A stretch of DNA of 64,000 bases, from the NCBI GenBank assembly GCA_030648005.1, contig JAUSIP010000001.1, positions 6,662 to 70,661 on the forward strand. The letters are read 5' to 3'. The DNA is from a bacterium. Lineage in GTDB: Bacteria > Patescibacteriota > Minisyncoccia > Phycocordibacterales > UBA12445. Position numbers and translations under genes: made by a program. The notes beneath the pieces are model-generated. The model had not been told where the DNA came from. It ran no database searches and worked only from the letters and a program-made list of their open reading frames with translations. Shown here one piece after another: positions 2,710-55,061 of the stretch; positions within the stretch are counted from its first letter, which is position 1; each line of letters starts with the position of its first letter.

Positions 2710-2722
2710 ATGTACCTATTAT

Positions 2723-2781
2723 AGTCCCGATTTTGATCTAAGTCAAAACCGGGATCCTCGATTCGATGAATCGAATCGGGA
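2723..2781. repeat. miniature inverted-repeat element, copy 1 (TIRs GTCCCGATT / AATCGGGAC)
   Basis: Perfect 9-bp terminal inverted repeats; the internal CGGGATCCTCGATTCGATGAATCGAATCGGGAC is the reverse complement of the element at 53662..53696. Confidence 0.7.
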
Positions 2782-3391: not shown

Positions 3392-5389
3392 CTACTTCGT
3401 CTTGAACTCGTACACACCTTCCCAAGTAGCAGGCGGATGTTCGATGAAGTAAAGTGCACGCTCATTAAGTAACCTCGTTGGGCCGTCGTTTAACTTTTTT
3501 AAAATATCTTCTGTAATCTTCTTAACCTCCTGCCAATCGCCGTTGTAATAAAATCTTCGAGCTTTCTCAAAGTCAGACAAGATCCCCTTCACAGCCTCTT
3601 CCTTCTCTCTCTCGACAACTTCGAAGATCGTGACCGGCAATTTCTTACCTTTAACCTTCACTCTATCCAACTCTCTTATCAAGATCTTCTCTTTCTCTAT
3701 CAGTTCGGCCGGCAGATGATCAAAAGTATGCTGGCTAATAATGATATGCACCCCATAAGTCTTAGTCTGGCCTTCAAGACGCGAAGCGAGATTCACAGTA
3801 TCTCCCATCACAGTGTAGTCAAACTGCTGTTCCGAACCCATATTACCAGCAATCACCTTACCTGAATTCAAACCGATACCTATATCAATAGCCGGATCAC
3901 CTTCTGATACACTCTTCTCATTAAACTTTTTTAGCGCAGTCACCATCTCTAGCGAAGTCAGAACTGCATCCACAGCGTGCATTTTATTGGTAAGTGGAGC
4001 ACCCCAGAAGGCCATAATTGCATCGCCGATATACTTGTCTACAACCCCCCGCTTTTTTAGAGCAATGTCAGTCATTACAGTAAGGTACTTATTTAAGAAA
4101 TGTACCAGCTGTCCGGGAGTGAGGCCTTCAGAAAGATTTGTGAATCCGCGAACATCGGAGAAAAATACAGTGGTCTCTTTCTCGTCTCCGCCAAGCTTAA
4201 TCTTAGACGGATCGCGGAGCATCTCTTCCAGAATATCCCTAGAAACATATTTAGAGAAAAGATTACGCAGGTGATTCTTCTCTTTCTCAACAGTAAAATA
4301 ATGATAGGCGAAAGAGACCAATGAGCCGGAGATCCAGGCCAAGTTAATGTGCACAATGTTCGCAACCTGACCCTCGCCAAAAAGGTAGATGATCGCGACA
4401 TTGTAAAAAATACCCAAGACAACATTTACTCCGAGAGCTTTCCATGGCCGTTCACTAAAAGAGAATAGAAGTGCCGGCAATAATGTGGCAAAAAATATCC
4501 AGAACTCAAGCCAGCCCTCACTGATCGGAGCAAGTTTATAATCCTGCAAGATCATGTTTGCGATCTCCGCCTGGATCTCCACTCCACTCATAGCTGTGCC
4601 TCGCGAGAATGGTGTCGGCTTCTCATCATGCAAATCCGCTGCAGTAGAACCTATAAAAATAATTTTGTTTAAGAGTGGTAGATCAATATTTCCTTCATAA
4701 ACTTTCCAGAAAGGCACCATTGGGAATGATCCGGGCGGACCGGCGAATACGATCCGCTCAATACTCTCTTTGGGGTATGAATTTCTATGGCGAAGTCCGG
4801 CCGACTCGACAGTTTTCAATCCTAACGCCTTATTGATCACCGAACTGTCCGCGATCTCTATCCAAAGTGGAACCCTACGCACTACACCATCACGGTCAAG
4901 TATTAGGTTCACATGTGCCGGCGCAGTTAGAGATACATCAGTTATAATTTTCAGATTTTTCACCAGTGGCGCACCTCTCTCTACAAATGCATGCAAGCCG
5001 TCGATATTCACACTGGTAAATTCAACCGGCATTACCAATGGATATTTCAAACCCTCCATAGCCCTCACAAGAGCCCAATCATCTGCCTCTCCTATACGCG
5101 AAGCCTCCGGAAAGATCACATCTAGACCCACAGACTTCGGCTTATACTGCTCCAGATTGGAGAGTGCCTTAGCAAACACAGCTCGAGGCCACGGCCATTG
5201 GCCGATCTTCTGGATAGATTCGTTATCTATACCAATGATAACTATATCTTTATTAATCTCCTTTTTACTGAAGAGAATATCCTCGAAGAACTGCTCTATC
5301 CCCGAGAAAAGTCCGGCACGAAAAGAGCCGACCAGGATTAAGCCGAGAAATGAGTTTAAAAAATAAAAAAATAATTTTTTCCTATTCAT
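3392..5389 (-). CDS. CHASE2 sensor domain / class III adenylate-guanylate cyclase
   Basis: N-terminal CHASE2-like region, TM helices, C-terminal cyclase core FFSDVRGFTNLSE...YIGDAIMAFWGAP. Confidence 0.85.
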   Translation of the reverse strand: MNRKKLFFYFLNSFLGLILVGSFRAGLFSGIEQFFEDILFSKKEINKDIVIIGIDNESIQKIGQWPWPRAVFAKALSNLEQYKPKSVGLDVIFPEASRIGEADDWALVRAMEGLKYPLVMPVEFTSVNIDGLHAFVERGAPLVKNLKIITDVSLTAPAHVNLILDRDGVVRRVPLWIEIADSSVINKALGLKTVESAGLRHRNSYPKESIERIVFAGPPGSFPMVPFWKVYEGNIDLPLLNKIIFIGSTAADLHDEKPTPFSRGTAMSGVEIQAEIANMILQDYKLAPISEGWLEFWIFFATLLPALLFSFSERPWKALGVNVVLGIFYNVAIIYLFGEGQVANIVHINLAWISGSLVSFAYHYFTVEKEKNHLRNLFSKYVSRDILEEMLRDPSKIKLGGDEKETTVFFSDVRGFTNLSEGLTPGQLVHFLNKYLTVMTDIALKKRGVVDKYIGDAIMAFWGAPLTNKMHAVDAVLTSLEMVTALKKFNEKSVSEGDPAIDIGIGLNSGKVIAGNMGSEQQFDYTVMGDTVNLASRLEGQTKTYGVHIIISQHTFDHLPAELIEKEKILIRELDRVKVKGKKLPVTIFEVVEREKEEAVKGILSDFEKARRFYYNGDWQEVKKITEDILKKLNDGPTRLLNERALYFIEHPPATWEGVYEFKTK

Positions 5390-22413: not shown

Positions 22414-22527
22414 CTCTGCCTCCTTTGGCCCTCCGTAGCTTTATGCGTAGGGGGCCTTTATTTCGTACAGTGTCAAGGAGCACTCAAACCGATGAGATAA
22501 TATCAGGAATAATTGATTTAGTCAATG

Positions 22528-22614
22528 CGGAGGTGGGAGGATTTGAACCTCCGATACCCTTTCGGGTATGCCAGTTTTCGAAACTGGTGATTTCAACCAC
22601 TCACCCACACCTCC
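22528..22614 (-). tRNA. tRNA-Ser (anticodon CGA), type II with long variable arm
   Basis: Hand fold: acceptor GGAGGTG/CACCTCC, anticodon loop TTCGAAA, T-arm GGAGGTTCAAATCCTCC, discriminator G, no encoded CCA. Confidence 0.85.
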
Positions 22615-22685
22615 AAGTTTAAGCGTTTAAATACTAACAGCATTTTGCATTTTTGACAAAATTTAGTATTATAACGAAACCTAAC

Positions 22686-22793
22686 GGCCCTATCGTTCCC
22701 GATTTTATTACGATTTCGTTACAGCGAAATCTCCATAAAATCGAGGATCCTCGACCCTGTGGGGTCGGGACTATCGGTTAGGACACGGCCTTT
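22686..22793 (+). pseudogene. orphan tRNA-Glu 5' half (to the anticodon loop) interrupted in the D-arm by a MITE
   Basis: GGCCCTATCGT + 75-bp element + CTATCGGTTAGGACACGGCCTTT is identical to positions 1-34 of tRNA-Glu at 22931; no 3' half follows. Confidence 0.7.
22697..22771. repeat. miniature inverted-repeat element, copy 2 (TCCCGATTTT...GGGGTCGGGAC)
   Basis: Shares its ends and the internal ATCGAGGATCC core with the copies at 2723 and 53662. Confidence 0.7.
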
Positions 22794-22915
22794 GAGAGGT
22801 GAGGATGGGGTAAGGGGTCCCATCCGCAAGACCTTTTGAGGTAGTTTGCGAGCTAGTGAAGCAAAATATCCAAAAGGTGTACTGCTCCCGTAGGGAGGGA
22901 AACGCAGTGAGGCAT
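22794..22915 (+). ncRNA. conserved structured element X between the orphan 5' half and tRNA-Glu
   Basis: GAGGTGAGG-hairpin-CGCAAGACCTTTTGAG...AATATCCAAAAGGTGTACTG-hairpin. A homolog lies upstream of tRNA-Gly (33021..33122) and shows compensatory hairpin changes. Confidence 0.5.
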
Positions 22916-22930
22916 TTTAAAAAACTATAC

Positions 22931-23002
22931 GGCCCTATCGTCTATCGGTTAGGACACGGCCTTTTCAAGGCTGGAAGCAGAGTTCGACTCTCTGTAGGGT
23001 CA
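22931..23002 (+). tRNA. tRNA-Glu (anticodon TTC)
   Basis: Hand fold: acceptor GGCCCTA/TAGGGTC, anticodon stem CGGCC/GGCTG, loop TTTTCAA, T-arm CAGAGTTCGACTCTCTG. Confidence 0.85.
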
Positions 23003-23139
23003 TTGCGAAGCAAGGAGACTAAGTGAATGAACTGCTTCATTCACGCCAGAGAGTCGAAGCCCGATTGAGATAGTTTATGATTCCGAGTTTATCGAGGAAG
23101 AAATAAAATATCCAATTGGGGTACTGTTCCTGTAAGGAA

Positions 23140-23158
23140 CGACTCTCTGTAGGGTCAT
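23140..23158 (+). repeat. direct orphan copy of the tRNA-Glu 3' end (CGACTCTCTGTAGGGTCAT)
   Basis: 19-nt identity with 22984..23003; preceded by the GGGTACTG-hairpin motif. Confidence 0.8.
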
Positions 23159-23172
23159 CGCGAAATACCACC

Positions 23173-24155: not shown

Positions 24156-24229
24156 GCGCGTGTAGCTCAGGTGGTTAGAGCGTTACATTGACATTGTAAA
24201 GGCCCCTGGTTCGAGTCCAGGCATGCGCA
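24156..24229 (+). tRNA. tRNA-Val (anticodon GAC)
   Basis: Hand fold: acceptor GCGCGTG/CATGCGC, D-arm GCTCAGGTGGTTAGAGC, loop TTGACAT, T-arm CCTGGTTCGAGTCCAGG. Confidence 0.85.
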
Positions 24230-24249
24230 CAACGAACGAAGTGAGGCGG

Positions 24250-24270
24250 GCACATGCCTGGACTCGAACC
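24250..24270 (+). repeat. inverted copy of the tRNA-Val T-arm/acceptor 3' strand (GCACATGCCTGGACTCGAACC)
   Basis: Reverse complement of 24209..24228 with one mismatch. Confidence 0.8.
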
Positions 24271-24349
24271 TCGAAAGGGGCCGGGAAAACTGTAGTTTTC
24301 CCGTGGAGGAAGGATTGGGAAAACCGTGGGTTTCCCAGTGTGTGAGTAC

Positions 24350-24364
24350 TCCAGGCATGCGCAC
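24350..24364 (+). repeat. direct orphan copy of the tRNA-Val 3' end (TCCAGGCATGCGCAC)
   Basis: 15-nt identity with 24216..24230. Confidence 0.8.
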
Positions 24365-26255: not shown

Positions 26256-28424
26256 ATGGAAGACAAACTATCTAAACCTTATAACCCGGCCGAGACGGAA
26301 GCTAGAATATATAAGAAGTGGGAGGATTCCGGCTATTTTAATCCGGATGTCTGTATAGAGAAAGGGGTTACAGGAGCAACTGCGCCTACCTTCTCCGTGG
26401 TTTTACCTCCGCCCAACGTGACTGGCCGTCTTCACCTCGGACATGCGCTTGAACACAGCCTTCAAGACACCGCTGTACGCTTCGAGCGTATGCGGGGCAA
26501 GCGCACTGTATGGATACCCGGCACAGATCACGCCGCCATTGCAACACAGTCAAGATTTGAGAAAGAGTTACAAAAAGAATCTGGCAAATCTCGACACGAT
26601 TTCCCGCGAGACGAGTTCTTCAATATGATAAACGAATTCGGACTGAAAAATCAGCAGGATATGCTCGGGCAGATGCGACTACTCGGCTCATCTCTCGACT
26701 GGTCTCGTGAAGCATTCACCCTCGACAAAGAGCGTAGTCTTGCCGTGAGAACCGCCTTCAAAAAGATGTATGATGAAGGCCTGATATACCGGGGCTTCCG
26801 AGTTGTTAATTGGGACCCTAAGGGACAGACAACCATCGCCGATGACGAGATAGTTTACGAGGAGCGCGAAGCAAAACTTTATACTTTTAAATATTCAAAA
26901 GATTTTCCCATCTCAATATCCACCACTCGTCCCGAAACCAAAGTTGGAGATACTGCCGTAGCTGTAAACCCAAAAGATGCTAGATATCAAGAATATATTG
27001 GTAAGACATACGAAATAAAAGATTTCTGTGGAGTCTCACTCAACATAAAAATAGTCGCGGATGATTCAGTAGAGCCGGAATTCGGCACCGGAGCACTGGG
27101 AGTTACACCGGCACATAGTCAGATAGACGCTGATATGGCCACCCGACACGATCTGCCAACCGTACAAGTTATAAATGAATTTGCGAAAATGACCGTTGGC
27201 GACGAAAGGATTTTAGGTAAGAAAACTACCGAGGCCAGAGAGGCTATCGTCACGTGGCTTAGCGAACAAGGGTTACTGGAGAAAGAGGAAGTGATCAAGC
27301 AGAATGTATCAACAGCAGAGAGGACAGGTGGGATAGTAGAACCTCTTCCGAAGTTGCAGTGGTTTATAAACGTCAACAAAGCTATCCCTTCAAAAAACAA
27401 CAAAACTCTGAAGGAACTAATGAGGGGGCCTATTTCGTCCCGCGAAGTTACTATTCTTCCTGATCATTTTGAGAAGATCTACTTCAACTGGATAGATAAC
27501 CTGCGCGACTGGTGCATCTCAAGGCAGATTATATATGGACATCAAATTCCTGTCTGGTATAGGAACGACGAGATCTATTGTGGTATCGAAGCTCCGGAAG
27601 ACCCGGGTTTCAAACAGGATCCGGATACTCTTGATACATGGTTCTCATCCGGACTGTGGACTTTCAGCACCTTAGGCTGGCCGAAAAAAACGATCGACCT
27701 AGAGACTTACCACCCTACAACCTTTATGAATCCAGGCTACGAGATACTGTTCTTCTGGGTGGCCAGAATGGTTATGATGAGTGAATATCTCTTAGGCGTT
27801 ATCCCATTTAAAACAGTCTATCTTCATGGAATCGTGAGGGATGCCAAAGGTAAAAAATTCAGTAAGTCTGCTAAAAATGGGATTGAGCCTGAAGAGGTTA
27901 TCAAGCAATTCGGCACTGATGCACTTCGAATGTCTATGATCGTCGGTATAGGACCGGGCAACGATCTAAGTTTTGATATTCAAAAAGTGAAAGCCTATTC
28001 GAAATTTGCCAACAAACTTTGGAATATTACACGGTTCACCCTCGACAATACAAAGGATCTTGATCTAAACAAAAATAACACCCTAGTATCCGAAGATATC
28101 GCCATCTGGAAAAATGTAGAAGCTTTAATACAGAAAATAACTACTGACATGGAAAGTTATAAATTCTACCTCGCGGCAGAAGATCTGTATCACTATATAT
28201 GGCACGAATTTGCAGATAAGATAATTGAAGAAAGTAAGCTATTGCTTCAGGGTGTCGATATAGCGATATCCAATTCCAGAAAGAAGCTTTTGCGAGATAT
28301 ACTTGCAACCTCTCTAAAACTCCTACATCCCTTCATGCCGTTCATCACCGAGGAGCTCTGGAGTATTCTCCCACGAGGGCAGGGCGAGAGTGAAATATTA
28401 ATGATAGAAAAATGGCCACATTAG
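26256..28424 (+). CDS. valS: valyl-tRNA synthetase (short form lacking the C-terminal coiled coil)
   Basis: PPPNVTGRLHLGHA (HIGH), KFSKS, YGTDALR-like FGTDALR. Confidence 0.85.
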   Translation: MEDKLSKPYNPAETEARIYKKWEDSGYFNPDVCIEKGVTGATAPTFSVVLPPPNVTGRLHLGHALEHSLQDTAVRFERMRGKRTVWIPGTDHAAIATQSRFEKELQKESGKSRHDFPRDEFFNMINEFGLKNQQDMLGQMRLLGSSLDWSREAFTLDKERSLAVRTAFKKMYDEGLIYRGFRVVNWDPKGQTTIADDEIVYEEREAKLYTFKYSKDFPISISTTRPETKVGDTAVAVNPKDARYQEYIGKTYEIKDFCGVSLNIKIVADDSVEPEFGTGALGVTPAHSQIDADMATRHDLPTVQVINEFAKMTVGDERILGKKTTEAREAIVTWLSEQGLLEKEEVIKQNVSTAERTGGIVEPLPKLQWFINVNKAIPSKNNKTLKELMRGPISSREVTILPDHFEKIYFNWIDNLRDWCISRQIIYGHQIPVWYRNDEIYCGIEAPEDPGFKQDPDTLDTWFSSGLWTFSTLGWPKKTIDLETYHPTTFMNPGYEILFFWVARMVMMSEYLLGVIPFKTVYLHGIVRDAKGKKFSKSAKNGIEPEEVIKQFGTDALRMSMIVGIGPGNDLSFDIQKVKAYSKFANKLWNITRFTLDNTKDLDLNKNNTLVSEDIAIWKNVEALIQKITTDMESYKFYLAAEDLYHYIWHEFADKIIEESKLLLQGVDIAISNSRKKLLRDILATSLKLLHPFMPFITEELWSILPRGQGESEILMIEKWPH

Positions 28425-29119
28425 CCAGCCCCACTGCATTGTTCTTCTCTCTGATCGGCGGGATAATCCCTGCGATTCTTTGGCTATGGTTCTGGCTACG
28501 CGAAGACAACAAGCATCCGGAACCGGCAAGAATGATCGTCGGAACCTTTCTTGCTGGTATCTTAAGTATAATACCCACATATTTCGCCGAATCTTATATT
28601 GCAGGCCATGTCGTGGACTCAGTAACAATTCTGATAATCTGGGCGCTCATTGAGGAAACTATGAAGTTCTCTGCGGCTTACCTCGGAGCTCTGCGTACAA
28701 AATTTTATGATGAGCCATTAGATGCGCCGATCTATATGATAACTGCGGCACTCGGTTTTGCCGCCGCTGAGAATTTTCTTTTTATTATAAACTCGCAAGA
28801 CAAACTATCATCTTTACTGACCGGCAGTATGCGTTTTGTTGGGGCAAGCCTACTTCACACGCTAGCATCTGCACTAATAGGCTGTATGATGGCGATGGCA
28901 TTTAAAAGAGGCTATTTCGCCAAGTTTATAGCTATTGTGATGGGGTTATTAACAGCTACAGTCTTGCACACATCCTTTAATGTATTTATAATTAAGAGTA
29001 ACGGCGGGAGTATTTCAATTGTATTTCTAACTCTCTGGCTGGCTATAATATTTCTACTGCTCTTCTTTGAGAAGCTTCGCATAGAAGATACTTACAACGA
29101 TCCCAATCAAATCGAATAA
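28412..29119 (+). CDS. prsW: PrsW-family intramembrane metalloprotease
   Basis: IEETMKF (EExxK) and FAAAENF (FxxxEN) motifs in a polytopic membrane protein. Confidence 0.75.
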   Translation: MATLASPTALFFSLIGGIIPAILWLWFWLREDNKHPEPARMIVGTFLAGILSIIPTYFAESYIAGHVVDSVTILIIWALIEETMKFSAAYLGALRTKFYDEPLDAPIYMITAALGFAAAENFLFIINSQDKLSSLLTGSMRFVGASLLHTLASALIGCMMAMAFKRGYFAKFIAIVMGLLTATVLHTSFNVFIIKSNGGSISIVFLTLWLAIIFLLLFFEKLRIEDTYNDPNQIE

Positions 29120-29698: not shown

Positions 29699-29703
29699 AA
29701 AAA

Positions 29704-29725
29704 ATCCCCATAAGGGGATTTTTAC
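29704..29725 (+). terminator. hairpin terminator after tRNA-Phe
   Basis: ATCCCCATAAGGGGAT plus T5. Confidence 0.65.
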
Positions 29726-29943
29726 TTGCCGAGGGAGAACGCCAACTGCTTGGCGTTCGTGCGGATTTGAAAGCCACAGCCATGTCCCATGGGGACAGGC
29801 GAGGCGGGGTCGAGAGTACTTAGTCCGCGCAATTTCGCTTTAGCGAAATGAGCAGACTTAGTAACTCGTGACCTAATCCCCCGAAGCTTGGTAAGGACAA
29901 TTTATTTGGAATTAAAATCGGCATAATTAAACAACCGGTTGTT

Positions 29944-29957
29944 CCCTCGGCACCAAA
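29944..29957 (+). repeat. direct orphan copy of the tRNA-Phe 3' end (CCCTCGGCACCAAA)
   Basis: 14-nt identity with 29685..29698+; preceded by the palindrome AACAACCGGTTGTT. Confidence 0.7.
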
Positions 29958-31055: not shown

Positions 31056-31654
31056 TAATTATATAATAACAAAAAAAGACCCCGGGGACAATCCCGGGGC
31101 CACAACCTCGCATGCTTAGCTAGCTACTCCTTTGACTACTTCGACCTCAGCCTTTTTTCTGCTCGATGCTCTCTTGCCACCAGATAAGATACCGGCACCA
31201 AGTACAAAACCGAAGTTATACCAACCACCATTGTTATGAACCTCATACAGACACACATCACTCGAGAAAAGCGAAATGATCCATGTGATCGGCGCGATTA
31301 TTCCGTGCTACAGACCGAGCCAGAACCCAGCAATATTTCCGTCCGAAGCTGGAACATTCACCGTAGTATTTGGACCGGGGGTACAACCAGTCAGAAGCAG
31401 TACCCCACCCAAGAACAATAGACCGAGCAAGTGTGTTTTCCTCATTGTTCCATCCTTCGAGTTAGAAACGTACACGATCTAGAGAATAGAGTATCATTTA
31501 TATTAAATAAGTCAATAACAAGGAATCTCGCCCTACGGGCGCTGGTACTTTTCGCTCCGATATCCATCGGAGAACGAAAAGTCTTTCGATTCCCCGGCGC
31601 AGGCAAAGCAGTTTGCCTGCTCGGGAGCACAAAAAACCGCTCCGCTCTTGTTTG

Positions 31655-32823: not shown

Positions 32824-32939
32824 AATACTTCCTCCTTGAACTAGTAACGCAATCTATGTTTTCAAACCCTCTCTAGTTTTGCATATTATAGTGTAAAAGT
32901 CAATAGCTGAAAAAACCTTGTATTCTCTAACTACTTTTG

Positions 32940-33010
32940 TGCGGCCAGGGAGAATCGAACCCCCATCTAATGCTTGGGAAGCACTCATTTTACCACTAAA
33001 CTATGGCCGC
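32940..33010 (-). tRNA. tRNA-Gly (anticodon CCC)
   Basis: Hand fold: acceptor GCGGCCA/TGGCCGC, loop TTCCCAA, T-arm GGGGGTTCGATTCTCCC. Confidence 0.8.
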
Positions 33011-33020
33011 TTTTCTAAAT

Positions 33021-33156
33021 TAAATCTCATCCTTACAGGATCTGTACACCTTTTGGATATATTCTCGCACAAACTCAAATATATCTCAAAAGGTCTTGCG
33101 GCGCTAAGCGCGCCTCACCTCAGGAAGGTCGCATCCTACCACTGAACTATACCCGC
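33021..33156 (-). ncRNA. orphan tRNA 5' half (GCGGGTATAGTTCAGTGGTAGGATGCGACCTTCC) fused to conserved structured element X, immediately upstream of tRNA-Gly
   Basis: Minus-strand sequence TGAGGTGAGG-GGCGCGCTTAGCGCC-GCAAGACCTTTTGAG...AATATATCCAAAAGGTGTACAG-ATCCTGTAAGGAT is homologous to 22794..22915. Confidence 0.55.
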
Positions 33157-44117: not shown

Positions 44118-44170
44118 AAAAACTCGAAGTGAGTCTTCCTATATAGGAAGACTCACTTCGAGTTTTTTTA
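44118..44170. repeat. 45-bp perfect hairpin repeat, copy 2
   Basis: Identical 19-bp stem to copy 1; loop ATATA; followed by T7. Confidence 0.8.
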
Positions 44171-45049
44171 GATAATCTCGGCTAGATCTTCGTATGTATC
44201 TTCCTTCGGAATAATGTAGATATCCTGCCCATACCCTCCAGTGCCGACATACTCCGCCTCGCCATTAAGTACCGCCTCGAAGTCCTGACAGGCGAAACAT
44301 CCCTCCTCACCTCGTGGACAATCGAACTCCTTCGCCAGCCGTGCCGCCTTAACCTTTCGAGCAACTGTTAAAACTTTCTCCTTCGCTTCAGTTAAATCCG
44401 GTATCTTCATTGACGTTAGTTCATCGCTTCGGTCTAAGTACCAGTAGGCTACGCCGGAAACTTTCCTTTTTTGCAGAGCATTAAGTAGGAGCATGTATAT
44501 TGGCAACTGAAGGGAACCTTCCCCCTCGTCATGTTTACCAGTTTTAAAATCAATCACCACAATACTGTCATCTTCAGGCTTGTACTCCATCCAATCGATC
44601 AATCCGCACAAAATAATATTCTCATCCTCTGACAAATAAAAGTTTGGTGGCATGCCGTTGTGTCCATCCTTTAGTCTGACTGTTTTCTTAGCTAAAGGTC
44701 CCGGATGTTTTATGGCTCGCTCGATCATCGCCTTACCTCGTGCCTTCGCCTCCGCTTCCTCTTCCGCTGACTGGAATCCGCCCTTTTTGCCAGACACCTT
44801 CATCCAAGCCACTTCATAATCCTCCAGCAAGTTCCTCTTTAGTCGTTCTTCGGTCGGTATCGTTTTTAAATTCTCCAACACTTCATGCACCGCCGTACCC
44901 AGCGACAACGCCGGACTTATGACCGCAATCTTCCGCCCGCTCTTCGGATCCTTGTAGACATTCTTAAGAAAGTAAGCGCGCGGACACTTCAAGAAGTCCC
45001 CCATCGAAGAGTGTGATACCCAGACTGCGGTGTATTTGTCTTGCGGCAC
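44168..45049 (-). CDS. PD-(D/E)XK nuclease (RecB/Cas4-like) with C-terminal Cys cluster
   Basis: GLIDWMEY...VIDFKTGK nuclease motif; CPRGEEGCFAC cluster. Confidence 0.6.
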   Translation of the reverse strand: MPQDKYTAVWVSHSSMGDFLKCPRAYFLKNVYKDPKSGRKIAVISPALSLGTAVHEVLENLKTIPTEERLKRNLLEDYEVAWMKVSGKKGGFQSAEEEAEAKARGKAMIERAIKHPGPLAKKTVRLKDGHNGMPPNFYLSEDENIILCGLIDWMEYKPEDDSIVVIDFKTGKHDEGEGSLQLPIYMLLLNALQKRKVSGVAYWYLDRSDELTSMKIPDLTEAKEKVLTVARKVKAARLAKEFDCPRGEEGCFACQDFEAVLNGEAEYVGTGGYGQDIYIIPKEDTYEDLAEII

Positions 45050-46058: not shown

Positions 46059-46313
46059 CTACTTATAAACATCTTTGCGGTGCTCGAATTTTATGACTGA
46101 AATCAATAGTTCTTGTTTATAAATTTTATATATGATACGAAACGGCCAGACGCGGACAGTATATTCGTCTTTATGTTTACCATGAAGTTTCTTGCCTGAA
46201 AACGGATCCGCCCTAATGGCGGAGAGAACTTGCATGGCTCTATTATAGTCCTCATCATTCAGACTATCGAGATTCTTTTCTGCTTTTGGTTTGATCTTTA
46301 GTATGAATGCCAT
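46059..46313 (-). CDS. RelE/ParE-family toxin
   Basis: 84 aa, basic; overlaps the upstream antitoxin gene. Confidence 0.6.
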   Translation of the reverse strand: MAFILKIKPKAEKNLDSLNDEDYNRAMQVLSAIRADPFSGKKLHGKHKDEYTVRVWPFRIIYKIYKQELLISVIKFEHRKDVYK

Positions 46314-46629
46314 ATTTTCTTTTTGGTTTTTCTGCCAGAGATCGAGGTCGTTTTGCGATCATCTCTTCAAGAGATACCCAGTTTTTATAATCTCCCGACC
46401 TTACAGCCTCATCAGTCTCAGTGACTTCCTTCTCTAGATCAGGAAAAGTACGAAGGACATCTAATGTTTCCACCCAGGATTCATATTCTTCCGCAGACAT
46501 AATAACCACCTTTGGCTTGCCGTCGGCAGTTAATGTATAAACTTTGTTTGGTGACTGCACTTCGTCAGCAATCTCAAAAATACGCTTGCGCGCATCGGAT
46601 ATAGAAATTGTTGTTTTTACATTTGTCAT
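46264..46629 (-). CDS. Phd/YefM-family antitoxin
   Basis: ISISDARKRIFEIADEV...VVIMSAEEYESWVETLDV. Confidence 0.65.
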   Translation of the reverse strand: MTNVKTTISISDARKRIFEIADEVQSPNKVYTLTADGKPKVVIMSAEEYESWVETLDVLRTFPDLEKEVTETDEAVRSGDYKNWVSLEEMIAKRPRSLAEKPKRKYGIHTKDQTKSRKESR

Positions 46630-53661: not shown

Positions 53662-53708
53662 GTCCCGATTCGATTCATCGAATCGAGGATCCCGACAGGG
53701 GTCGGGAC
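53662..53708. repeat. miniature inverted-repeat element, copy 3, inserted in an orphan tRNA-Asn 5' fragment
   Basis: GTCCCGATTCGATTCATCGAATCGAGGATCCCGACAGGGGTCGGGAC, flanked by TCCTCGGTA and TCAGTGGTTTAGTTGTTAAC (tRNA-Asn positions 1-9 and roughly 12-38). Confidence 0.75.
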
Positions 53709-53810: not shown

Positions 53811-53948
53811 AGTGAGCGAAGCGAACGCTCCACGAGCAAGCAAACTGCTTTGCTTGCGTGGTAGGATTCGAAAAGGTTCTCCGTTATCCGATGGCAATCG
53901 GATCGGAAACCTGTACCGTTCATGTAATGAAAGAATCCTTCTAAAAAA

Positions 53949-54566
53949 ATGAAAAACCCCAAAGTAATAATCTACGACAACGACGGAATGATCTGCCATA
54001 GTGGCCGATTTAGCGACAGTTATTCTAAGGAGTTTGGGATTGAGATGGATATAATGAGTCCCTTTTTCGAAGGACCATTTAAAAACTGTCTCGTTGGAAA
54101 AGCAGACCTGAAAGAGGAGTTAGAAAAAGTTTTAGATATATGGAACTGGAAAGGGACAGCCAACCAGCTTCTTGATTACTGGTTTTCAGTAGGAAGCACG
54201 CTCGACGAGAAAGTTTTCCCTACTATTTCAAAATTTAAAGATCAAGGTCTAATAGTATGTCTGGCAACTAATCAGGAAAAATATCGAAAAGAATATTTAG
54301 TTACAAAATTTGGATACGACAAAGTATTTAATGAAATCTTTTCTTCTGCAGAACTAGGCGCTTATAAGAACAGCGAGAAGGGTCTCCAAAAAACTTTCGA
54401 CATCTTGAAAGATAAATATGGCATTGAAGATAGAGACGAGATCATGTACTGGGATGACCGAGAAGGAAATGTTGAACATATAAATCAGTTTGGTATGAAC
54501 GGTCAGCATTATAAAAATTATGAGGAGTTTAGGGATGTAATGGCCGGTCTTGGCTACTTAGTTTAA
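53949..54566 (+). CDS. HAD-superfamily hydrolase
   Basis: IIYDNDGMI (motif I), LATNQ, WDD. Confidence 0.6.
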   Translation: MKNPKVIIYDNDGMICHSGRFSDSYSKEFGIEMDIMSPFFEGPFKNCLVGKADLKEELEKVLDIWNWKGTANQLLDYWFSVGSTLDEKVFPTISKFKDQGLIVCLATNQEKYRKEYLVTKFGYDKVFNEIFSSAELGAYKNSEKGLQKTFDILKDKYGIEDRDEIMYWDDREGNVEHINQFGMNGQHYKNYEEFRDVMAGLGYLV

Positions 54567-54570
54567 TTTT

Positions 54571-54972
54571 ATGCAAAATAAAACAACTCACGAATCATTT
54601 GTTTTAAGACAATCCACACTTCCAAGTGCAGGAATCGGAGTGATTACCTTACACGACATAGCCAAGGGTACATATATGGAGCTTTTTCGTGATGGTTTTG
54701 AGGAGGAAATTAGGGATGAGTCTGATGTGCCGAAGCCACTCAGGGCATACTGTCTCTATCAGGGTAATGGCAAGATCTTATGTCCAAAAATGTTCAATCG
54801 TATGGATATCGGAAATTATCTCAATCACTCAGAGAACTGGAATATGGTCTATGAAAAAGGCAGGGGTTACTTTGCTTCTCGAGATATTAGAGCCGGAGAG
54901 GAACTCTTTGCCAACTATAGAGATCTGGGAGAGCCCGAAGACCAGAGAGAGGAGTATTACAAGGTGCATTAA
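54571..54972 (+). CDS. SET-domain protein (putative lysine methyltransferase)
   Basis: NHSENWN and GEELFANY motifs. Confidence 0.6.
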   Translation: MQNKTTHESFVLRQSTLPSAGIGVITLHDIAKGTYMELFRDGFEEEIRDESDVPKPLRAYCLYQGNGKILCPKMFNRMDIGNYLNHSENWNMVYEKGRGYFASRDIRAGEELFANYRDLGEPEDQREEYYKVH

Positions 54973-55043
54973 TACTTTGACCTTCAGCATTTCTTGGAGC
55001 AGAGCGAGTACGATGCGAAAGGTGTACTGTTCCCGTAATGAAA

Positions 55044-55061
55044 GAATCCTACCCGGGGAGC
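55044..55061 (+). repeat. direct orphan copy of the tRNA-Asn 3' end (GAATCCTACCCGGGGAGC)
   Basis: 18-nt identity with 53791..53808; preceded by the GGTGTACTG-hairpin motif. Confidence 0.8.

Follow-up and report, generated by a model that had tools for sequence, protein, structure and literature searches.

A tRNA-Val trailer in a patescibacterial genome belongs to a modular family of small insertions carrying antisense copies of the adjoining tRNA

What is an inverted copy of a transfer RNA (tRNA) doing a few bases behind the gene that it copies? The question is raised by the tRNA-Val gene upstream of tsaD in a 64,000-nucleotide stretch of a patescibacterial genome (assembly GCA_030648005.1, contig JAUSIP010000001.1, positions 6,662 to 70,661), which we call the window and to which all positions given without a contig name refer. 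A preliminary description of this locus had noted a trailer able to fold back on the tRNA and a direct copy of the tRNA 3′ end beyond it, had proposed either an att-site remnant or a processing or attenuation structure, and had called for a statistical test of the repeats and a comparison with orthologous loci. By their homologues, TsaD and UPF0176 assign the window to an uncultured genome of Patescibacteria/Parcubacteria type. Both tests were carried out, the comparison on contigs of relatives with 68–77% TsaD identity (L001, L002 and so on), and we conclude that the trailer is a 119-bp insertion belonging to a modular family. The explanation to which we incline, if not strongly, is a mobile, non-autonomous element that targets tRNA genes and carries a functional antisense segment.

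The tRNA-Val(GAC) gene (24156–24229, forward strand, as are all parts of this locus) was identified by ARAGORN and with an Rfam score of 68.7 bits; it is intact and has no encoded CCA. Its final 14 nt and the one following base (24216–24230) form the left copy of a direct repeat, TCCAGGCATGCGCAC, whose right copy, the displaced or ‘orphan’ original 3′ end, lies at 24350–24364; the repeat finder matched the two at 15 of 15 positions, as had been described. CA comes next, giving GCGCA-CCA, the flank beyond the orphan starts CAGAATAATC, and the tsaD start (24375) follows after 10 nt. The insert between the two copies begins with a left terminus or spacer, AACGAACGAAGTGAGGCGG (24231–24249), the initial 14 nt of which are the same in L002 and which has CGAAG and AAGTGA motifs in common with the Asn and Glu trailers. 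The antisense copy of tRNA-Val occupies 24250–24282. Its main part pairs as an inverted repeat with arms at 24208–24228 (GGTTCGAGTCCAGGCATGCGC) and 24250–24270 (GCACATGCCTGGACTCGAACC), found by the repeat finder to be 21 nt long and complementary at 20 of the 21 positions (95%), with an A opposite C70 as the sole mismatch. The coordinates first given for this copy were thus correct, but the complementarity is not perfect, the discriminator is not complemented (the pairing covers nt 53–72), and the copy begins 20 nt, not 15, past the discriminator A (24229). Beyond a 5-nt bulge (TCGAA, 24271–24275) the antisense segment resumes with AGGGGCC (24276–24282), complementary to 24201–24207, which brings to 28 the number of tRNA positions that can be sequestered (nt 45–72). 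Between the antisense segment and the second repeat copy stand the two similar hairpins of the preliminary description, located here at 24282–24303 (CGGGAAAACT/AGTTTTCCCG) and 24316–24337; the second is a diverged tandem copy of the first, with 85% mutual identity. Hairpin 1 is present in L080 and missing from L002, and the sequence of hairpin 2 is the same in L080 and L001. The right terminus, GGTTTCCCAG-N3/4-GTGAGYAC (24329–24349), directly adjoins the displaced tRNA end and is kept in all four Val-type copies (window, L080, L001 and L002). The insert contains no open reading frame (ORF), and its termini are not mutual inverted repeats.

The tRNA, trailer and orphan together have a predicted folding energy of −106 kcal/mol (z = −8.4 against shuffles), and the 28 paired positions plus bulge bear out the earlier proposal of a long hairpin over the T arm and the acceptor 3′ strand. 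In the minimum-free-energy fold the acceptor 5′ strand pairs with the orphan copy, and, by the repeat finder, the antisense segment is able to pair with either copy of the direct repeat. When the 200-nt trailer was shuffled 300 times, complementarity as high as that observed never arose, either at tRNA-Val or at four further loci, Glu, Phe, Arg and Asn (p ≤ 0.003 each), excluding chance, and the same test found no antisense trailer signal at 13 other tRNA loci in the window and its relatives.

Presence of the trailer varies among relatives: it is found in L080, L001 and L002 and is absent from L003 and L093, where the bare tRNA-Val reads GCGCA-CCA and GCGCA-CCC, respectively, and represents an empty site. 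In the window it is the downstream copy that has the CCA-type flank of these empty sites, and the functional copy runs into element sequence. Because the bare genes of the two relatives end as the downstream copy does, 24231–24349 is an insertion of 119 bp. It has left an intact tRNA-Val with its last 15 bases duplicated, and has displaced the original 3′ end, with CCA and native flank, to 24350–24364, the site of the downstream copy. The sites of the Glu, Arg, Asn and Phe elements were likewise found empty in L002, L092, L001 and L005.

As for the filled sites, the Val-type element of L002 is 79 bp long, with a left terminus identical at 14 of 14 positions, the right terminus kept and a perfect 15-nt repeat. 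The L080 contig starts within the element and is 92% identical to the window over 78 nt, and L001 starts with the Val right module, 90% identical to that of the window, and continues with TCCTGTATCGCCCAC. The latter is the 3′ end of the diverged tRNA-Val native to this genome (TCCTGTATCGCCC), which stands at the end of L092, a contig from the same sample as L001; the tRNA has five differences inside the 15-nt block, and the same five are present in the orphan copy. This copy is cut at the contig break, so its antisense region lies outside the available sequence. Independent short-read assemblies break in or just after tRNA-Val, at the end of L094 and the end of L092, and resume inside the trailer at the start of L080 and of L001, probably as a result of the palindrome formed by tRNA and antisense segment or of polymorphism at the site.

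In the same genomes in which the Val element is 90–92% identical, tsaD DNA identity is 68–72% and that of the flank past the orphan about 53%. The element, though non-coding, is more conserved than the essential gene beside it; together with its conserved ends and a repeat that follows the local target, this indicates an insertion that has spread recently or is under strong constraint, rather than drift. This bears directly on the view that the locus is the inert scar of a large integrase-borne island, inserted at the tRNA-Val 3′ end by recombination of attP with attB and then almost wholly deleted to leave attL, 119 bp and attR, with the inverted copy as a functionless leftover of arm sequence. 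Islands that target tRNA genes are classically recognized by a regenerated tRNA and a displaced 3′ fragment (10.1101/2020.12.28.424599), and empty sites in relatives, the decayed antisense segment of L002 and the cargo ORFs between tRNA-Asn and its orphan end, both described below, would also be expected of such a scar. A neutral scar, however, should not be 90–92% identical where tsaD DNA is about 70% identical, nor would it account for the same architecture at five tRNAs with an antisense segment of its own at each, for stems that covary around an invariant loop, or for one scaffold joined to two different tRNAs; and the copies yielded no integrase remnant, nor did the window in a Pfam analysis of 61 of 62 ORFs of at least 90 amino acids (aa). 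We therefore regard an inert scar as unlikely. Of the original suggestion of an att-site remnant, the insertion stands, with its empty sites in L003 and L093, its CCA-type flank on the downstream copy and its conserved ends, but the element is more than a passive remnant, being better conserved than the essential gene beside it and part of a modular family in which the antisense segment tracks the tRNA.

An antisense tRNA copy follows five of the seven window tRNAs (Glu, Val, Phe, Arg and Asn); tRNA-Ser and tRNA-Gly(CCC) of the window have no 3′ trailer. At all five the segment lies 23–63 nt downstream on the tRNA-sense strand and is complementary to nt 53/54 up to nt 65–73. The tRNA-Glu element (23003–23164, forward strand) has a hairpin with the loop AACTGCTT (23023–23044) preceding its antisense segment (23047–23058), then a 3′ module (23108–23139) and an orphan 3′ end (23140–23164). 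In the tRNA-Phe element (29699–29957, forward strand) a hairpin resembling an intrinsic terminator (29702–29721) stands between tRNA and antisense segment, the two antisense halves (29726–29735 and 29761–29771) are split by a AACTGCTT hairpin (29737–29758), and a structured body leads to the orphan (29944–29957). The tRNA-Arg element (31521–31653, reverse strand) likewise has antisense halves (31622–31630 and 31585–31595) with a AACTGCTT hairpin between them (31599–31620), and its scaffold, on the same strand, ends in a hairpin (31527–31543); a 7-nt T-loop copy, GATTCCT (31521–31527), is also present. The tRNA-Asn element (53811–55061, forward strand) again has a AACTGCTT hairpin (53836–53857) between its antisense halves (53827–53835 and 53858–53872), and carries cargo: copy A of a 3′ module (53913–53939) is followed by two accessory ORFs (53949–54972), one HAD-family phosphatase-like and one with a SET domain, and by copy B (55024–55050), and the orphan (55044–55061) lies 1.25 kb downstream. 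With the 27-nt module, which ends in GAATCCT, duplicated on either side of it, the cargo has a cassette-like layout. The layout had been said to recur at the Glu, Phe, Asn and Arg loci; the antisense copies do so at all four, accompanied by a nearby orphan end at Glu and Phe, but the Asn orphan is remote and Arg has the 7-nt copy alone.

Several regularities run through these elements. The hairpin that divides the antisense segment of Phe, Arg and Asn has a 7-bp stem and stands exactly opposite the junction of T stem and acceptor. The Asn and Arg loci have predicted folds with z values of −4.5 and −5.7, respectively, and a three-way junction in each. The repeats start at T-loop nt 56–60 (Glu, Asn, Arg and Val) or nt 65 (Phe) and end between nt 73 and +7, and such break points at the T loop and extreme 3′ end fit those of tRNA-targeted integrative elements. 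Elements range from 79 to 260 bp, and most copies have no ORF.

The antisense segments follow the tRNAs beside which they lie. In a 7 × 7 matrix of antisense segments against tRNAs, the best partner of every segment was its own tRNA. The Phe element is conserved in L001, and where T-loop nt 59 is A in the window and G in L001, the antisense segment has changed from T to C accordingly; stems in the Phe body show compensatory change (GCC/GGC against GTT/AAC), and one C–G pair has become U·G on the forward strand. Modularity is seen most directly in L094, which begins with a second Glu element that has an Arg-type right scaffold but a Glu-specific antisense segment and orphan. The scaffold shared between the Arg element of the window and the Glu element of L094 reads GAAAGACTTTTCGTT ... 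AAAAGTACCAGCGCCCGTAGGGCGAG, and its hairpin AGCGCCCGTAGGGCGAG is identical in the two.

The AACTGCTT hairpin is present at the four sister loci. Across seven such hairpins, with seven different stems, 98% of cells in the alignment are paired and 7 of 7 pairs have changed on both sides, and 0 of 500 shuffles reached either the pairing or the covariation score. In 163 kb of related DNA there are 14 occurrences of the motif; seven have a stem of at least 6 bp, and all of these are beside tRNAs and on the tRNA-sense strand. Occurrences in 120 unrelated viral loci, sought with a looser pattern, had no stem in any case. An invariant loop on a freely varying stem implies recognition in a folded single strand, and at least one module of the family is thus constrained as folded single-stranded nucleic acid, either RNA or DNA. 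Pairs of G·U type occur on the tRNA-sense strand in the Arg antisense segment, in the antisense segment and hairpin of the L094 Glu element, and in the body of the Phe element, and speak mildly for folding of this strand.

A constrained fold on the tRNA-sense strand would also be expected of a host RNA acting in cis, in which the fold-back, or pairing of the orphan near tsaD, controls tRNA 3′ processing, termination and read-through, or the stability or translation of the mRNA. Every copy is on the tRNA-sense strand, the folds at Val, Asn and Arg are very stable, and the antisense segment can pair with both repeat copies; moreover, a scan for promoters and terminators around Val found no promoter-like site within the element, and, with the orphan 10 nt before the tsaD start, the trailer is probably co-transcribed with tsaD. 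Against this, L093, a close relative, has the same tRNA and gene without the element, L002 has the element without the fold, and the downstream genes vary by locus (tsaD, a UPF0176/TrhO-like gene, HAD and a lipoprotein-like ORF). At Phe the terminator-like hairpin separates tRNA from antisense segment, which, with the decayed antisense segment of L002, argues against a general cis role in tRNA maturation. The folding of the tRNA itself would face competition from a structure that sequesters the T arm and acceptor strand, and the direct repeat and conserved termini would be left unexplained. A cis-regulatory role is, in our judgement, distinctly unlikely.

The agreement between repeat and resident tRNA admits a different reading, in which the element is a cassette with homology arms: the tRNA and its duplicated 3′ end would guide copies, by break repair or transformation, into the same tRNA gene of naive genomes, possibly helped by a homing endonuclease encoded elsewhere, and the inverted copy would be incidental or a decoy for binding of the endonuclease. 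The repeat matches the resident tRNA in every case, even where this has diverged, as in L092/L001, and repeats of variable length are expected of recombination, not of a fixed stagger. An ORF of 86 aa of the GIY-YIG type, with a weak match to group I intron endonucleases, is present at a related locus (L003, 3570–3974), between an orphan tRNA-Val 5′ fragment (nt 1–24) and the intact tRNA-Val, the start of which it overlaps. A right arm of 13–25 nt is, however, very short for RecA-type recombination, no 3′-side element has an endonuclease gene, and neither the antisense segment, structured like the tRNA and covarying with its T loop, nor the invariant-loop hairpin would be explained. We consider such a cassette decidedly improbable.

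The orphan of tRNA-Val, with its CCA, might instead be the true 3′ exon of an unconventional intron that extends from the T loop to 24349, with the antisense segment resembling an internal guide sequence that brings the two splice sites into line. Group I introns are frequent in the tRNA genes of Patescibacteria, in which they are located in the anticodon loop (PMC13011429); the sequences flanking the putative 5′ splice site pair with the antisense segment, as does the orphan, with the 5′-to-3′ order of P10 and P1 in group I introns; and in the minimum-free-energy fold the acceptor 5′ strand pairs with the orphan. The unspliced gene is, however, already a complete tRNA, and the Arg copy has no 3′ exon. 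The junction has no U·G pair (T60 pairs with A) and there is no terminal G, the base before the orphan being C (Val), A (Glu) or T (Phe). No core of Rfam family RF00028 was detected at E ≤ 10 (Val/Glu and Phe) or E ≤ 5 (Asn and Arg/Gly), the GGTTCAGAGACTA and GATATAGTCC cores of the published introns are missing, and elements of 79–135 nt are too small for any known self-splicing core. An intron of this kind is very improbable indeed, and a group I intron was rejected on the absence of core, U·G pair and terminal G, in which the locus is unlike the published Patescibacteria tRNA introns.

We return to the mobile, tRNA-targeting element as the explanation that we favour. The insertions form a family of small elements, confined so far to one Patescibacteria lineage, the putative target of which is the region from T loop to 3′ end of tRNA genes. 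Each member has four parts: a conserved left terminus; a segment of 12–28 nt antisense to the T loop, the T-stem 3′ strand and usually the acceptor 3′ strand of the adjoining tRNA, often interrupted at the T-stem/acceptor junction by the hairpin with the invariant AACTGCTT loop; a hairpin scaffold; and a conserved right terminus adjoining the displaced tRNA end. We propose that the antisense segment is a target-matching module working in a folded single strand, where it would pair with the tRNA-sense strand, and that a recombinase or nuclease encoded elsewhere in the genome may use the folded structure to insert the element at a matching tRNA gene. This could take either of two forms. In the first, a folded att site, the tRNA 3′ half and the antisense segment would make a bulged duplex copy of the target, like CTX attP(+) or integron attC. 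In the second, transcription from the tRNA promoter would continue into the antisense segment, making it part of a guide RNA that the hairpin scaffold presents to form a guide–target helix. The two fit the layout about equally.

Each form has its precedents, none of which matches the family fully. The tRNA-targeted islands with tyrosine integrases (Islander-type elements and tycheposons, and the integrase-less cis-mobilizable elements, CIMEs) also insert in the 3′ part of a tRNA with a break in or near the T loop, regenerate the tRNA and displace the 3′ fragment as a direct repeat, as at Val, Glu, Phe and Asn, and they also show tandem or nested arrangements, cargo genes (here at Asn) and presence or absence among relatives. 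Unlike them, the present elements have a size of 79–260 bp, no integrase in themselves or in the 64-kb window, an antisense target copy that reaches the chromosomal side of the repeat, covarying hairpin scaffolds and one scaffold with different tRNAs. The attP(+) of CTX phage, which uses the Xer proteins of the host, and integron attC likewise have two imperfect, inverted copies of a site close together that can fold to a bulged duplex, with no recombinase of their own and with structure kept over sequence, as in our variable stems; the order after integration, namely hybrid site, short spacer, inverted partner, body and second hybrid site, is also the same. The target here is, however, a tRNA gene rather than dif or attI, the window has no gene of Xer or IntI type, the fold includes the 3′ half of a functional tRNA, there is an extra hairpin with an invariant 8-nt loop, and a single-stranded DNA stage is putative.

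The bridge RNA of IS110 and the seekRNA of IS1111 offer the closest parallel to a guide, being structured, non-coding and two-part, interrupted by a hairpin, complementary to the target and differing according to it. In contrast, the elements and the window have no gene for a DEDD (RuvC-like) recombinase, both antisense halves are complementary to one strand over a contiguous 20–28 nt, not placed in two loops that pair with both strands, and the insert is bounded by long direct repeats, not by a 2-nt core. The group I introns of Patescibacteria (PMC13011429) share the phylum, the kind of host gene, a guide-like segment that pairs with both sides of the junction and, at the related locus in L003, an ORF of homing-endonuclease type; they differ in that our elements lie at the T loop and 3′ end, lack catalytic core, U·G pair and terminal G, and leave the tRNA intact without splicing. 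Casposons at tRNA 3′ ends resemble the family in their insertion point and target duplication of about 15 bp, but the repeat length here is variable and no Cas1, polymerase or terminal inverted repeats are present. The primer-binding site of long-terminal-repeat retroelements is also an element-borne stretch of some 18–21 nt antisense to the 3′ end of a specific tRNA, but there is no reverse transcriptase here and no complement of CCA at Val, Phe, Arg or Asn, where the bases 5′ of the antisense segment are CGG-G, ACT, TTTG and AAC, respectively, not TGG. The missing CCA complement implies that the antisense segment matches the gene, not the mature tRNA, and a primer-binding site was rejected on this ground. 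A hammerhead-type guide was rejected because the junctions are only A and GT/GCC, with no CUGAUGA/GAAA core, and an H/ACA-type two-part guide because the two helices leave none of the target bases between them unpaired.

Searches for partners and further copies were made at several levels. Pfam analysis covered all window ORFs of at least 90 aa except 28412–29119, which is assigned as PrsW by synteny with L001 only, and tsaD was identified separately; no integrase, transposase, reverse transcriptase or homing endonuclease was detected, the only nucleases in the 64-kb window being an unrelated PD-(D/E)XK protein and YbeY. The PD-(D/E)XK (Cas4-like) ORF (44168–45049, reverse strand) and an ORF for a Phd/YefM-type antitoxin (46264–46629, reverse strand) do not adjoin any tRNA element. 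Rfam gave only tRNAs across the whole window at the gathering threshold, and only tRNAs and noise at the five loci at the relaxed thresholds given above for RF00028, on which basis a known RNA family was rejected. Scans with exact patterns found no further Val-type copies in IMG/VR, GTDB representatives or JGI metagenomes, and the family seems either to be narrow or to vary too much for such patterns. We found no description in the literature of tRNA trailers that carry an antisense copy of the tRNA, nor any match for a tiny integrase-less element with target-antisense sequence beyond the repeat, a covarying scaffold and use of one scaffold for two tRNAs.

A number of observations weigh against mobility driven by the antisense segment. 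In L002 the antisense segment has decayed (shuffle p = 0.55; fold z = 0.1) though the element is retained; the segment is thus not needed for retention, and its role in insertion is unproven. Gene conversion could likewise make the antisense segment track the tRNA, as could copying of the target during insertion. The A·C mismatch at Val, on the tRNA-sense strand, makes the evidence for the folding strand mixed. Repeat lengths vary (about 13, 15, 18 and 25 nt) and fit no single fixed-stagger mechanism. No excised form was seen, no search aimed at one having been made. No enzyme was found in the window and no copy of the element with a recombinase gene among the 10 copies that make up the sample, which come from five genomes and several of which are truncated by contig ends; and the exact pattern of the Val right terminus gave chance matches in coding DNA, and no further Val-type copy, among GTDB species representatives and JGI metagenomes.

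The direct repeat, regenerated tRNA, empty sites and Asn cargo of the family place it with known tRNA-targeted elements and their integrase-less derivatives; what sets it apart from these is the lack of an integrase, the tiny size, the target-antisense sequence past the repeat, the covarying scaffold and the reuse of that scaffold. A bolder proposal is that the insertions are the non-coding part of a new class of programmable, nucleic-acid-guided elements, in which a swappable antisense segment, in register with tRNA structure and carried on a AACTGCTT scaffold, would guide a trans-acting enzyme to insert the element at any tRNA gene that it matches, and the change from Arg to Glu on one scaffold would be an instance of retargeting; we hold this to be rather doubtful, though not far-fetched. 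If the antisense segment truly selects the target, the elements would be a very small, naturally retargetable insertion system and a new use of tRNA genes by mobile DNA. Even conservatively, the tRNA genes of Patescibacteria, in otherwise pared-down genomes, are crowded with tiny structured insertions that duplicate pieces of tRNA. These insertions confuse assemblers, with contig breaks at the palindrome of tRNA and antisense segment, could mislead tRNA annotation, and give a living example of how tRNA genes could become fragmented or split.

Other tRNA-linked structures were noted in the course of the analysis. A palindromic mini-element of 46–75 nt (TCCCGATT..AATCGAGGATCCCG..CGGGAC) occurs in the window at 22697–22771, 53663–53708 and 2720–2781 (reverse strand) and in L003 at 3581–3631; orphan 5′ fragments of tRNA-Glu, tRNA-Asn and, in L003, tRNA-Val are interrupted by it within the D stem (between nt 10/11 or 11/12), and the third copy in the window is in a non-tRNA spacer. 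At 22794–22930 and 33011–33122 (reverse strand) there is a structured element of about 110–137 nt, made up of GAGGTGAGG, a hairpin, GCAAGACCTTTTGAG ... ATATCCAAAAGGTGTAC and a hairpin with a GTA loop; it comes after orphan 5′ halves of tRNAs that break off in the anticodon loop, has no Rfam match, and has its 3′ module and covarying stem in common with the tRNA-Glu 3′ trailer (23108–23139). The orphan 5′ half of a tRNA-Gly beside it (33123–33156, reverse strand) resembles the tRNA-Gly(CCC) of L001, while the adjoining intact tRNA-Gly(CCC) (32939–33010, reverse strand) differs, which suggests that this tRNA was overwritten by an incoming copy. An element on the 5′ side of tRNA-Ser (L092, 8450–8618; L002, 7200–7378) contains a copy of tRNA nt 1–15, a hairpin whose loop is AACTGCTT (in L002, ATTGTTT) and a conserved stem, GGGCGATTT..AAATCGCCC; also included is a new promoter-like site ahead of the intact tRNA. 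Lastly, the order of the divergent tRNA-Ser and tRNA-Glu genes is swapped between the window (22527–23002) and both L002 (7007–7468) and L092 (8307–8706), implying an inversion at a locus rich in tRNA-linked elements.

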